A stretch of 64,000 nt of DNA from Escherichia coli (GTDB lineage: Bacteria; Pseudomonadota; Gammaproteobacteria; Enterobacterales; Enterobacteriaceae), in the NCBI RefSeq assembly GCF_022846255.1, contig NZ_AP025682.1; one strand, written 5' to 3'. Position 1 is the first letter of the stretch, and each line of letters starts with the position of its first letter. A model generated the notes under the pieces. The model was not told the DNA's origin and ran no database searches. It saw only the letters and a program-made list of their open reading frames with translations. The position numbers and the translations under genes are program-made. Of the stretch, positions 13,713 through 18,103 are shown in pieces.

Positions 13713-14555
13713 TCAGGCTGATAGCACAGAAGGAAAGTACCTGGCTATTATATCGTTAATTCTGTCAATCAGTTCCAGCCTTTTGAAAGTGATGTGTGCA
13801 GATCCCTTCTTAAAGTATTTAATGATGAACATCTCGTCTTCATAGCGCTCTTTACCCTGAACGGACTGGATGTGACCATCCAGACGAATAGTGATGTTTT
13901 CCCGGTTGTCGGGGATCGGTTTGCCGCTGAACAGATGTAGCATTCTTTCCAGGTCGACGAGTCGGTCAGTCTGTTGCCCGGTGATAAGATGAAACCCCCA
14001 CCGGTCCCACCTCACCAGGTTGTTGACGATAATTTTACTGCCAAATTTGCAGGGGCAATTGGTTTTGTAATTCCAGCTCAGTCCCCTGAAGACGTTGATC
14101 ACCCCTCGCTCAAACACCTCATCCTTATTCTGGTGTAGTTGTTCAAATGTGATCAGAATGTTCGCTTCACTGATTTCCGGAAAATTATCGTACTCCAGTG
14201 ACCGGTACCATGTATCACGGGCCTGTGCATCCATTAAGGAAAGCATCCCTGAACGTTGCATCAGGTCACGCCAGATTTCGCGATCGAGATTGCGTGTGAT
14301 GGCTTTCATTGCGGTTTCCGGTTTCTCCATCAGCCAGCAGCCGCAGCGAAAATCCTGTTTCATGGCCCAGCCCGGGGCGGCTTTACCGCCAATACTTTCT
14401 GTCATTGCTGATATTTCAGCCAGTTGCCGGATAAGTGTGTCGATTTGCAGCAGTGTACTCTTTCGTACAGCCAGAATGTGGCGGATACTGGTTGAGCAGA
14501 TAACGTCCGTATGCCCGGTGACCACTTCCGGACGGGAGATTGTGATGTCTGACAT
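13713..14555 (-). CDS. Hypothetical protein, DUF4942-like, at the distal end of a CP4-44-like module
   Basis: 280-aa ORF, co-oriented and last in the yeeT-cbeA-cbtA-yeeW gene string. Confidence 0.5.
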   Translation of the reverse strand: MSDITISRPEVVTGHTDVICSTSIRHILAVRKSTLLQIDTLIRQLAEISAMTESIGGKAAPGWAMKQDFRCGCWLMEKPETAMKAITRNLDREIWRDLMQRSGMLSLMDAQARDTWYRSLEYDNFPEISEANILITFEQLHQNKDEVFERGVINVFRGLSWNYKTNCPCKFGSKIIVNNLVRWDRWGFHLITGQQTDRLVDLERMLHLFSGKPIPDNRENITIRLDGHIQSVQGKERYEDEMFIIKYFKKGSAHITFKRLELIDRINDIIARYFPSVLSA

Positions 14556-14639
14556 TATCGGTTTCCCTTTTGGTTTATAAACGAAAACGCCAGCCCTGTT
14601 CAGGCTGACGTCAGTGGAATGAAGTATGGTGAGTGATAT

Positions 14640-15062
14640 TTACCGGTTCTGGTGCAGAAGCTGCAGGTGACGAAGAGTACGGACATCCTCCCGGGCCTGT
14701 TCGATACAGGGCAACAGTGCTGCCGAATCCGTTTTATCCTCATCGTTGTCAAAGATAATTCCCGATTCGCAGTCGATATTGTCCTGCAGCCACGCAATGA
14801 GGATATCCAGCGCTGTTTCAGTGGTTAATGGCATCACGCTCTGTATCACTGTATTGTCTTCCGGCAACTGATGAGGACTGGCAGAAGTCGCCGGTGTTTC
14901 GGTAGCGTCACGTTCATCCACCACGCGGAGTGAATAACCGTTTTCAGCGACCTTGTTAATCAGTTCAATGAGATTAACACCATCGACGTCAACGACAATT
15001 CGCCCCATGTTCAGCGCCTGCACGTTAACGCTGTCGGCTTCCAGCGTCAGGGCCAGTTTCAT
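14640..15062 (-). CDS. YeeW/YkfH-like hypothetical protein downstream of the toxin gene
   Basis: 140-aa ORF whose start overlaps the toxin gene stop; position matches the gene after yeeV in CP4-44-type modules. Confidence 0.45.
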   Translation of the reverse strand: MKLALTLEADSVNVQALNMGRIVVDVDGVNLIELINKVAENGYSLRVVDERDATETPATSASPHQLPEDNTVIQSVMPLTTETALDILIAWLQDNIDCESGIIFDNDEDKTDSAALLPCIEQAREDVRTLRHLQLLHQNR

Positions 15063-15436
15063 TGTTTCGCCTCCGGATGCTTACCCAGAGTAATGTTATT
15101 TACTGTTCGGTAATTGTCGCGGGTCATCAGGCCGGTCGCCCTGCGAGCCCGGAGGATATCGATGCTGTTTATTAACTGAGAGCGGGTACAGGCGCTGAAT
15201 CCCGGCTGGTCGGTACGCACCAGCGCGTATTTTTCCACGAGAAAGTTCACCGCATCACACAGTGAAATGCCTGCCTCAATATGCTGCTCAATCACACGTT
15301 CATCAGCGAACGGTGTGTCATTCAGTGTGAGGCCGTAATGCTGGTCCAGCAGTCGGGTGAGCAGTGTATGCCAGATGGTGACGGGAGACGGGCAGCACGA
15401 TGCCTCCCGTACGTGTGTGTCAGGTAATGTTTTCAT
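15059..15436 (-). CDS. cbtA: CbtA/YeeV-family type IV toxin (cytoskeleton-binding toxin)
   Basis: Start moved to MKTLPDTH (about 125 aa). C-terminal region ...LLDQHYGLTLNDTPFADERVIEQHIEAGISLCDAVNFLVEKYALVRTDQ... recalled as YeeV-like. Confidence 0.7.
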   Translation of the reverse strand: MKTLPDTHVREASCCPSPVTIWHTLLTRLLDQHYGLTLNDTPFADERVIEQHIEAGISLCDAVNFLVEKYALVRTDQPGFSACTRSQLINSIDILRARRATGLMTRDNYRTVNNITLGKHPEAKQ

Positions 15437-15482
15437 CTTAAGTTCTCTGTAACTGGTAGTGCTAAAGGTGAGATATTCGGGG

Positions 15483-15857
15483 TTATGAGGTGGTTGCGGG
15501 TGCCAGTGTCGGATAAACAGCCATATAAACGTAACCACAGGAGCCGAGGGTGTCGGCTTCACAGGCCAGCCCCTTCGCATACAGTGTCACGGTATGCTGA
15601 TGGCGGGGATTCAGTTCACCGCTGGTGAGCATGAGCTCCAGTTGTTTCATCAGCAGCGGAAAGGCCTGGTCCAGGTGGTACGCATCTGCATCGCTGAACA
15701 GGCCTCTGATACCGGCGCGGTCGGCAAGGTAATGCAACCGGTTACCCTCCTGCACCAGACGTGCCCCGAAACAGGGCGTCACGGTGCAGGGCAGCCCCCA
15801 CCAGGGGCGGTCGTGATTGTCGTCGGGAAGTGTTGTCCCGGGGAGTGTGTCTGACAC
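15483..15857 (-). CDS. cbeA: CbeA/YeeU-family antitoxin
   Basis: 124-aa ORF immediately upstream of the toxin; sequence MSDTLPGTTLPDDNHDRPWWGLPCTVTPCFGARLVQEGNRLHYLADRAGI... recalled as YeeU-like. Confidence 0.7.
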   Translation of the reverse strand: MSDTLPGTTLPDDNHDRPWWGLPCTVTPCFGARLVQEGNRLHYLADRAGIRGLFSDADAYHLDQAFPLLMKQLELMLTSGELNPRHQHTVTLYAKGLACEADTLGSCGYVYMAVYPTLAPATTS

Positions 15858-16216: not shown

Positions 16217-16693
16217 TTAAAGCAGACCGTGTTCCGCAAAGGAGAAAACCTGGTTGCCACCGACTATCAGATGGTCCGGCACCCGGATATCCACCAGGGC
16301 CAGTGCCTGTACCAGACGTTCGGTGATAAGCCGGTCTGCCTTACTGGGTGTGACTTCACCGGACGGGTGATTGTGTGCCAGCACCACGGCAGCGGCATTG
16401 TGATACAGGGCGCGTTTAATCACTTCCCGGGGATGGACTTCCGTGCGGTTGATGGTGCCGGTGAAGAGGGTTTCACCGGCAATCAGCTGATTCTGGTTGT
16501 TCAGATACAGCACCCGGAATTCTTCACGCTCCAGTCCCGCCATGTTCAGAATCAGCCATTCCCGTGCCGCATGCGTGGAGGTGAAGGCCACGCCGGGTTC
16601 ATGAAGATGGCGGTCCAGGGTTTTCAGGGCCCGCTGAATGAGGCTGCGCTCACCGGGCGTCATTTCTCCGGGCAGAAAGGAAATCTGTTGCAT
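16217..16693 (-). CDS. RadC-like JAB-domain protein (YeeS/YfjY/YkfG family)
   Basis: 158-aa ORF with the JAB metalloprotease motif HNHPSG and the position expected for yeeS. Confidence 0.75.
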   Translation of the reverse strand: MQQISFLPGEMTPGERSLIQRALKTLDRHLHEPGVAFTSTHAAREWLILNMAGLEREEFRVLYLNNQNQLIAGETLFTGTINRTEVHPREVIKRALYHNAAAVVLAHNHPSGEVTPSKADRLITERLVQALALVDIRVPDHLIVGGNQVFSFAEHGLL

Positions 16694-16707
16694 TGTTCCG
16701 GCCCCTT

Positions 16708-17217
16708 TCAGTCAATGATGCGCATAATGGCGCTGCATTCCGGATGTTGCAGGGCGTAATCCCGCAGCCGGTAATAGTGGACCGTCATGGCATAACACTC
16801 CGTACGACAGGCATGATGGCTGTACGCCATCAGACAGGCGGCAATGCCGGCAGCTTCCGGGCTCATTTCAGCGCGGTTACCGTTCATGGCATTGAACAGT
16901 ATCCAGGTTTCTCCATCATCTTCATCCGGTTCAGGTGCTATAAATGCGCCACCGTTGTTCAGGGTGTACAGATTCCAGATACCCCCGCAGTAGTCTTCAC
17001 ACAGACGGTCCATCCAGCCGAAGACACGGGGCTCCAGGGTCACCCACTGTGGAATGAGGCCAAAGTGCTGCGGCCAGAAGCTGATGCGCTGTTCATCAGG
17101 GACGGGAGTGGCAACCAGCTGAGGTGGGTTATTCCCTGATGCAGTAGTTACGGAAACAGAAGATGTGGTGGAATTATGCGCAGAGGTTGTCATGAGATTA
17201 TTCCTTATAAAAAGCAA
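16708..17217 (-). CDS. Antirestriction protein (KlcA/ArdB-like, YfjX/YafX family)
   Basis: 169-aa ORF; position and acidic C-terminal region typical of the antirestriction genes of E. coli cryptic prophages. Confidence 0.6.
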   Translation of the reverse strand: MLFIRNNLMTTSAHNSTTSSVSVTTASGNNPPQLVATPVPDEQRISFWPQHFGLIPQWVTLEPRVFGWMDRLCEDYCGGIWNLYTLNNGGAFIAPEPDEDDGETWILFNAMNGNRAEMSPEAAGIAACLMAYSHHACRTECYAMTVHYYRLRDYALQHPECSAIMRIID

Positions 17218-17284
17218 ATGAATGGAAGAATGCCCGGGGGAAGGGACAGCCGTGAGTCAGAACTGCGCTTTCAGGGAAACGGCA

Positions 17285-18103
17285 TCAGCGCATACTCTCC
17301 AGCAGTGTTTCTGCCATCACCCACAACGCCCGGTTGAGCTTAATGTCGGTGTCGATGCTGTGAATGGCACGGGTATGGATACGTTTTCCTTTTGCACTGC
17401 GACCGGAAATCCCGCCTTTCAGCATATTCTCCTGGATGGTCTGATATGCGCTCCACAGGTCCTTACCGTAATCTTCCCGGCGTCGTGGTGTCAGAATGTC
17501 GGCAGTGGTGACGGGCTGATGTTCATCGCCATAACGGTAAGTCAGTGCCGCCTGTGCCAGCGCCTGACGTGCCGGTGGCGGCAGAACCAGAGACTGCATG
17601 GCATCACGCTTTTCCTCAATCCGGTCAAAAACGCCCACTACCTCGTAAGCCCCTTCAATAACTTTCTCCACCACGTCTCCCCGGTGTGGAACACGCACTT
17701 CCCCCAGAGACAGACCACAGACGCAGCCGTTCTGGCAGACGAACCTGAAGTAACCCGGCAGCATCTGGTAGCTGGAGGTACCGTCATGGGAGTTCAGCAG
17801 GATGATTTCAGGGACATGTTGTCCGTTTCTCTCCCCGTCACGGCGCAGACGCAGCATGTGTTTGGTGTATCCCCGGCGGCTCTGGTCGCGCACGCGGGTC
17901 TGGCAGGCGAAGAATGGCTGAAAACCTTCCCGCTGCAGGCTTTCCAGTACGGTGATGGTGGGAATGTACGCATACCGTTCACTGCGGGAGGTATGCCGGT
18001 CTTCCCCAAAAATACTGGGTACATAGTGCATCAGTTCTTCATGTGTCAGCGGACGGTCACGGCGTATCTGGTTTACATGACCAAAACGACTTGCTAATCG
18101 CAT
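17285..18103 (-). CDS. DUF932-family protein (YfjQ/YafZ-like)
   Basis: 272-aa ORF upstream of the antirestriction gene in the same orientation; assigned by recalled similarity and gene order. Confidence 0.55.
   Translation of the reverse strand: MRLASRFGHVNQIRRDRPLTHEELMHYVPSIFGEDRHTSRSERYAYIPTITVLESLQREGFQPFFACQTRVRDQSRRGYTKHMLRLRRDGERNGQHVPEIILLNSHDGTSSYQMLPGYFRFVCQNGCVCGLSLGEVRVPHRGDVVEKVIEGAYEVVGVFDRIEEKRDAMQSLVLPPPARQALAQAALTYRYGDEHQPVTTADILTPRRREDYGKDLWSAYQTIQENMLKGGISGRSAKGKRIHTRAIHSIDTDIKLNRALWVMAETLLESMR

Follow-up and report, generated by a model that had tools for sequence, protein, structure and literature searches.

An intact-looking CbtA/CbeA toxin-antitoxin pair in the terminal module of a pheV-integrated island of Escherichia coli

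Introduction

Is a toxin-antitoxin pair that sits at the end of a genomic island still an intact system, or has it decayed into a remnant? We asked this of a 64,000-nucleotide stretch of Escherichia coli DNA (NCBI RefSeq assembly GCF_022846255.1, contig NZ_AP025682.1; hereafter the window), in which a string of minus-strand genes at positions 13713-18103 includes cbtA and cbeA, encoding homologues of the type IV toxin CbtA (YeeV) and antitoxin CbeA (YeeU) of the E. coli K-12 element CP4-44. The initial annotation of this DNA had proposed that toxin and antitoxin are full length and form a functional, cytoskeleton-targeting pair rather than a decayed one, within a complete, co-oriented, CP4-44-like string. 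We consider it highly probable that the locus carries an intact and common CbtA/CbeA pair in the conserved far-end module of a pheV island beside the kps genes, which is the best explanation of the observations as a whole.

Results and Discussion

Both genes of the pair are full length

The two genes lie directly next to each other on the same strand, antitoxin upstream, with a 46-bp spacer between the cbeA stop at 15483 and the cbtA start at 15436:

15483-15857, minus strand: cbeA antitoxin gene, 124 amino acids, starting at GTG 15857 (PF06154, E-value 5.9e-54, model positions 1-100 of 101)
15059-15436, minus strand: cbtA toxin gene, 125 amino acids, starting at ATG 15436 (PF06755, E-value 1.3e-62, model positions 1-112 of 112)

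Pairwise alignment to K-12 YeeV and YeeU bears out the proposal that both are full length. The toxin is identical to K-12 CbtA at 111 of 124 positions (89.5%; 125 versus 124 amino acids) and the antitoxin to K-12 CbeA at 112 of 122 (91.8%; two amino acids longer), and neither gene shows a truncation, a frameshift or an internal stop; the alignments reveal no loss of conserved residues, and F65 is kept. The corresponding proteins of CP4-6 and CP4-57 are more distant, the toxin being 58% identical to YkfI and 63% to YpjF, and the antitoxin 61-64% identical to YafW and YfjZ. In RefSeq, WP_000854692.1 ('TA system toxin CbtA family protein') has 100% identity to the toxin, and WP_001605875.1 ('type IV ... 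antitoxin CbeA') equals the antitoxin except in the translation of the GTG start codon. By sequence, therefore, both belong to their families, the toxin through its full-length PF06755 match and F65, and the antitoxin through its full-length PF06154 match, its position adjacent to cbtA and its matches to solved YeeU structures (PDB 2INW, E-value 3.6e-79, residues 1-123; 2H28, E-value 2.3e-78, residues 1-117). These structures, of Shigella flexneri (2INW) and E. coli (2H28) YeeU, differ from the window antitoxin by few substitutions, and the alignment over residues 1-123 takes in an LGSCGYVY...PATT tail that is absent from K-12 CbeA. A PDB search with the toxin found no solved CbtA-family structure, the best E-value being 0.13, and tblastn found no second copy of the toxin-antitoxin pair in the window.

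The open reading frame (ORF) list had placed the toxin start at ATG 15580, giving a protein of 173 amino acids that overlaps cbeA; we rejected this start and took 15436-15059 as the gene because residue 49 is where the Pfam domain sets in, and the internal MKTLP is the start shared by all homologues. Read from the sequence, cbeA has a Shine-Dalgarno motif (GAGGA, 15869-15865) 7 nt before its GTG, and the cbtA ATG is preceded only by a weak AGAGAA. At its other end, the cbtA TGA overlaps the ATG of the next ORF (ATGA, 15062-15059) with a GGAG (15074-15071) 8 nt upstream, an arrangement that implies translational coupling of cbtA to the downstream ORF.

The toxin is conserved and common

Sequence comparisons favour maintenance of the pair over decay and show that the body of the toxin is under strong purifying selection. 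The ratio of nonsynonymous to synonymous divergence (dN/dS) across toxin codons 28-125 is 0.037 against K-12, and for the toxin body it is 0.049, at a synonymous divergence (dS) of 0.29, against a 97%-identical allele from strain 0H15; comparisons with distant paralogues give 0.12-0.26. Ratios of 0.04-0.05, full-length genes and a retained F65 thus support the view that the pair is not decayed. Nor is this allele rare: the exact toxin and antitoxin proteins each occur on at least 1000 contigs. The string as a whole is at least 80% covered in 3613 of 5426 complete E. coli genomes, at a median of 3 places per genome, in agreement with the high CbtA copy number reported for extraintestinal pathogenic E. 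coli lineages (PMC10790755; PMC6521040).

The pair belongs to an eight-gene string at the end of a pheV island

The ORF list and a Pfam search together delimit eight consecutive genes at 13713-18103, all on the minus strand. Besides cbeA and cbtA, these are, in order of transcription:

17285-18103, minus strand: DUF932 gene (YafZ/YfjQ-like), 272 amino acids, first in the string (PF06067, E-value 1e-49, model positions 2-227 of 227; annotated as a DUF932 protein in the closest genome by the Prokaryotic Genome Annotation Pipeline, PGAP)
16708-17193, minus strand: antirestriction gene (YafX/LfgA-like), 161 amino acids from ATG 17193 (PF03230, E-value 6.5e-36, model positions 1-92 of 92; phrog_10132, anti-restriction)
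16217-16693, minus strand: RadC-like JAB gene (YeeS/YkfG/LfgB-like), 158 amino acids (PF04002, E-value 2.8e-45, model positions 2-121 of 121; TIGR00608)
15933-16154, minus strand: DUF987 gene (YeeT), 73 amino acids (PF06174, E-value 5.4e-40, model positions 1-65 of 65)
14640-15062, minus strand: YeeW-like ORF, 140 amino acids (DUF5983_N, E-value 8.6e-29)
13713-14555, minus strand: DUF4942 gene (methyltransferase-like), 280 amino acids, last of the island (PF13708, E-value 1.2e-65, model positions 1-189 of 190; phrog_6263, DNA methyltransferase, E-value 3.7e-15)

The Pfam matches across the string are far above chance, and seven of the eight proteins match their models end to end, the exception being the product of 14640-15062, which matches DUF5983_N only. 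For the antirestriction gene the most likely start is ATG 17193 (486 bp), not the TTG 17217 of the ORF list, because its PGAP-annotated homologue is 486 bp long. In the closest complete genomes, gene order and orientation are identical or near-identical and PGAP annotates the genes alike; over 13500-18300, no complete E. coli genome matches the whole string at more than 98.4% nucleotide identity, which places the strain of the window outside that set. RadC gave the one specific match in an NCBIfam search of the string proteins. We also considered an anti-phage defence assignment for the string and rejected it, as a PADLOC scan recognised none of the eight proteins.

The claim that the string is complete and co-oriented holds for the orientation and for the count of eight genes, but not for the integrity of each member. 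Aligned to its relatives, the YeeW-like ORF begins with the DUF5983 N-domain and continues in the same frame through a linker, similar to the end of K-12 YeeW, into DUF957. The DUF5983 C-domain (PF19419) is missing; the long form exceeds the ORF by about 275 bp and comprises, in strain 0H15, a 162-amino-acid DUF5983 protein (PF25638 plus PF19419) and a separate DUF957 protein of 65 amino acids. The YeeW member is thus a deletion derivative, and the string is complete by gene count. K-12 YeeW likewise has the N-domain only but, unlike the window protein, does not extend into DUF957. The exact fused protein occurs on 563 contigs, and in the closest genomes PGAP annotates a DUF957 gene and, separately, a partial pseudogene in this place. 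We made the DUF957 assignment by aligning the ORF with proteins that PGAP annotates as DUF957: in the Pfam search the DUF957 part of the ORF had no match even at an E-value of 10, and neither did the stand-alone DUF957 protein of 0H15, which indicates that the family is missing from the Pfam copy used.

What bounds the string on its downstream side is a copy of one end of a tRNA gene:

13581-13602, no strand assigned: direct repeat of the tRNA-Phe 3' end, attR-type island boundary, TGGTGCCGGACTCGGAATCGAA, with one C missing (17-nt exact match to a pheV tRNA)

This 22-nt repeat lies 110 bp beyond the DUF4942 stop, and outside it follow an IS110 remnant, then kpsF, kpsE and further kps genes. 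As no tRNA gene occurs within the window, the island must exceed 50 kb and continue past the window's right end. The same arrangement recurs in a minimal form in strain ECCWS199, in the order tRNA-Phe, integrase remnant, string, IS110 remnant and kpsF. More generally, strains 82.0311, F1022 and ECCWS199 carry pheV islands next to kps that share with the window the same string, the DUF5983/DUF957 fusion, the IS110 remnant and the kpsF neighbour, although their cargo beyond the Ag43 gene differs. The string is thus a conserved module that closes the pheV-integrated island on its far side, next to the kps capsule locus.

Upstream of the string lie an Ag43 autotransporter gene (18431-21352), the IsrC small RNA gene and a YeeP-type GTPase gene, as in CP4-44. 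The description of the string as CP4-44-like is fair, in that IsrC, Ag43, RadC, YeeT, CbeA, CbtA and YeeW are shared, the one departure from such an island-end string being the DUF5983 member, which is joined to DUF957 and misses its C-domain. The CP4-44 pair belongs to the same Pfam families and has the same antitoxin-then-toxin order and orientation, with RadC and YeeT upstream, an N-domain-only YeeW downstream, and IsrC and Ag43 in place. It differs in carrying R15 where the window toxin has C15, in an antitoxin that is shorter by two amino acids and diverges from about residue 98 onward, and in a spacer of 88 rather than 46 bp; its RadC homologue, yeeS, encodes 148 rather than 158 amino acids. 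CP4-44 has yeeR and debris, whereas the window island keeps DUF932, the antirestriction gene and an intact DUF4942 gene and is therefore the more complete. YkfI/YafW of CP4-6 and YpjF/YfjZ of CP4-57 also belong to the same families, the toxins sharing F65 and Cys15 with the window toxin, and the upstream order resembles that of the window (DUF932 ... antirestriction, RadC, DUF987, antitoxin, toxin). Unlike in the window, extra genes stand between DUF932 and the antirestriction gene, the proteins are shorter (toxins 109-113 and antitoxins 105 amino acids), and the spacers measure 20 bp (PMC5371832).

RefSeq and many genomes already contain these proteins, this string and the fusion ORF, and the location is known from them too. 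One can confidently call the locus a CbtA-family toxin with a CbeA antitoxin in the end module of a pheV island by the kps genes, which adds little beyond annotation.

Predicted expression and action of the pair

A consensus scan of the region returned 11 terminator-like sites, against 4.9 +/- 2.5 in shuffled sequence. One of them directly follows the YeeW-like ORF:

14586-14612, minus strand: terminator-like hairpin of 11 pairs with a T-run after it, 28 nt past the YeeW/DUF957 stop (consensus scan only)

This hairpin is the probable end of the transcription unit that holds the toxin-antitoxin pair, and a second, found in the same way, lies past DUF4942 at 13572-13544. Transcription would run as one unit that begins at DUF932 or at an internal promoter and ends at the hairpin past YeeW/DUF957.

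For the action of the proteins, the K-12 orthologues are the guide. There CbtA, a small cytoplasmic protein, binds the H6/H7 loop of FtsZ through a surface that includes F65, as well as the flat face of MreB, so that both division and elongation are blocked and over-production yields lemon-shaped cells and lysis. Rather than sequestering the toxin, CbeA binds and bundles FtsZ and MreB polymers, leaving a cytoskeleton resistant to CbtA, which is the sense of 'type IV'; this bundling mechanism in K-12 is cited in PMC5624674 and PMC5371832. By extension, the window allele would be toxic and would be neutralised by its own CbeA, and by analogy it may act on both FtsZ and MreB.

The residues that govern these contacts allow the two targets to be considered separately. 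F65S removes FtsZ binding in CbtA, YkfI and YpjF (Heller et al., PMC5624674), and a CbtA double mutant, F65S plus R15C, is non-toxic (PMC5624674). In a family alignment of 79 sequences (the window toxin, the three K-12 paralogues and 75 near-full-length relatives from a protein search), F65 is kept in the window toxin and invariant in all 78 ungapped members, so that the FtsZ arm of the window toxin is well supported. Position 15 is more varied: of the 72 sequences ungapped there, 54 have Cys and 17 Arg. The window toxin carries Cys and hence lacks the MreB residue of K-12 CbtA, R15, which does not define the family, so that its loss is no bar to membership. Indeed, this Cys15 is not a lesion, because Cys is the majority state and because YkfI and YpjF carry it natively and are toxic. 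The N-terminus follows the same division, K-12 'VLPGQAASSR' being a minority haplotype and the window's 'DTHVREASCC' type the majority class. One further residue of the window toxin, H23, is unusual, in that 75 of 76 other ungapped sequences have Gln, yet the exact protein is common in the contigs counted above.

Several points weigh against extending K-12 function to this locus. The K-12 toxins are weakly expressed and their antitoxins deletable (PMC5371832), so an intact gene need not give a phenotype at native levels. A promoter consensus scan found 6 sigma-70-like sites against 4.4 +/- 2.2 in shuffles, and none was convincing upstream of cbeA. A search of the accessible literature found no experiment on the window allele. 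Cys15 stands where R15C abolishes MreB binding of K-12 CbtA (PMC5624674), which makes the dual-target claim less secure than the FtsZ claim. Finally, an Erwinia homologue with both R15 and F65 bound neither FtsZ nor MreB (PMC6521040), indicating that conserved residues alone do not guarantee a target.

Of the alternatives, the most probable, which we regard as possible though clearly less so than the main reading, is that the pair is intact but phenotypically silent cargo at native levels. It would be kept mainly because it stabilises the island-end module or hitch-hikes with it, and the module would in turn serve the establishment and maintenance of the mobile element, not host physiology. 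The recurrence of the whole string across genomes and at several places in each is consistent with this, as is its position, which is always on the side of the island away from the tRNA and integrase and abuts the tRNA-Phe repeat. The module includes an antirestriction gene, which is typical of the protection of incoming DNA; CbeA, YfjZ and YagB have been reported to be translocated through the F conjugation channel (PMC11288057); and in K-12 the antitoxins are not only dispensable but the operon is not autoregulated (PMC5371832). Nonetheless, silent carriage is compatible with a working toxin-antitoxin pair and not opposed to one, a stabilisation or establishment role is without direct evidence here, and the lack of any PADLOC match does not speak for it.

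A second alternative, which we judge unlikely, holds that the window allele is an FtsZ-only toxin whose Cys15 N-terminal haplotype has lost the MreB arm, producing filaments rather than lemon-shaped cells. In its favour, R15C in K-12 CbtA specifically removes MreB binding and gives just such filaments (PMC5624674), and the window toxin has, in addition to C15, 12 other substitutions relative to K-12 CbtA, 11 of them within residues 6-27. Against it, YkfI and YpjF, with their native Cys15, produce lemon-shaped cells, YpjF binds MreB, and C15R is without effect in both (PMC5624674). The behaviour of these two toxins, together with the Cys15 majority in the family, indicates that the effect of R15C depends on context, and we regard the MreB arm of a Cys15-class toxin such as this one as plausible. 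A mildly useful point follows for the family at large: R15, the MreB determinant established by experiment, is part of a minority haplotype, and as most natural alleles carry Cys15, what K-12 CbtA teaches about MreB targeting may not hold for the common ones.

A mosaic patch spans the junction of the two genes

By codon comparison and sliding identity, the window and K-12 agree at 98-100% from yeeS to the end of cbtA, apart from one short segment:

15310-15600 (approximate bounds), minus strand: mosaic patch of about 290 bp that takes in the end of cbeA (from about codon 90), the spacer and codons 6-27 of cbtA, and holds nearly all differences from K-12 CP4-44

Within the patch dS is 0.5-0.56, whereas outside it dS is 0.016 for cbeA codons 1-89 and 0.12 for cbtA codons 28-125. 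Further upstream, the RadC gene differs from K-12 yeeS by 2 nonsynonymous and 8 synonymous codons, and the DUF987 gene from yeeT by 1 and 10, respectively. A pattern of this kind is the signature of one recombination tract that carries a different allele. The patch is at least 80% covered in 2030 complete genomes; in the patch search, colinear one-piece matches have the 46-bp spacer and two-piece matches represent the 88-bp K-12 form. Against a best whole-string match of 98.4%, strain ECCWS199 is far closer in the toxin-antitoxin patch (311 bp, 100%) and in the YeeW region (515 bp, 99.8%), and the string as a whole is therefore a mosaic whose parts have different nearest relatives. In strain 0H15 (NZ_CP081677.1, 5279-6072), the toxin that is 97% identical to the window's has as its neighbour an antitoxin of the YafW type that shares only about 60% identity with the window CbeA, from which we conclude that toxin and antitoxin types are shuffled between islands. 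Such shuffling fits an antitoxin that need not recognise its toxin, and the pairing of a near-identical toxin with a YafW-type antitoxin fits non-cognate, type IV neutralisation.

Might the patch carry function of its own? We entertain, as a rather improbable idea, that it is an exchangeable cassette that switches the target spectrum between an Arg15 class, which reaches MreB through R15, and the majority Cys15 class, which uses other MreB determinants or none. If this were so, natural CbtA alleles would form distinct functional classes, dual-target and FtsZ-only, and carrying many copies in one genome would not amount to redundancy. Still less credence attaches to a type II-like alternative, in which CbeA neutralises CbtA by direct, allele-specific binding and the patch serves as a specificity cassette whose parts co-evolve. 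What differs from K-12 is indeed confined to the antitoxin C-terminus and the toxin N-terminus, but these two segments are adjacent in the DNA, so that one recombination tract explains the pattern. Co-evolution of the two termini was therefore rejected as the simplest reading, all the more as this Cys15 class of toxin has another type of antitoxin elsewhere, namely in 0H15. In K-12, moreover, the three antitoxins cross-neutralise all three toxins (PMC5371832), and no toxin-antitoxin contact was found (PMC5371832; PMC5624674).

That the pair is instead a decaying remnant, with reading frames open by chance and inactive proteins, is the least probable of all and already disfavoured. In its favour are the missing C-domain of the neighbouring YeeW/DUF5983 gene, the IS110 fragment just outside the island and the generally degraded state of CP4-44-type elements. 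Against it, both genes span their Pfam models in full, F65 is kept, dN/dS is 0.04-0.05 for the toxin body, and the exact sequences of both are widespread.

Other features of the window

Several features around the string were recorded in passing. The IS110 remnant between the terminal repeat and kpsF is the C-terminal part of an IS110-family transposase (13200-13355, minus strand) and is also present in the closest genomes. Just upstream of the Ag43 gene, the IS102/IsrC small RNA (21296-21532, minus strand) scores 70.7 bits in Rfam against a gathering threshold of 46, and K-12 CP4-44 has the same isrC-flu arrangement. On the far side of the island boundary, positions 1-12425 form a group 2 capsule (kps) locus, with conserved export genes up to kpsF (11406-12425) and a serotype-specific region (1-5000) that has a very low G+C content of 29-34% and holds an ORF of 1117 amino acids at 37-3390.

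Toward the other end of the window, the cargo at 43000-64000 is poorly represented in the 5426 complete E. coli genomes, the best match reaching 37% coverage at 89% identity. It contains a sugar-acid catabolism cluster, with genes for an IclR regulator, a DapA-family lyase, a UxaA hydrolase, a PdxA dehydrogenase and a major facilitator superfamily transporter, along with yjhIHG-like genes and IS66 elements.

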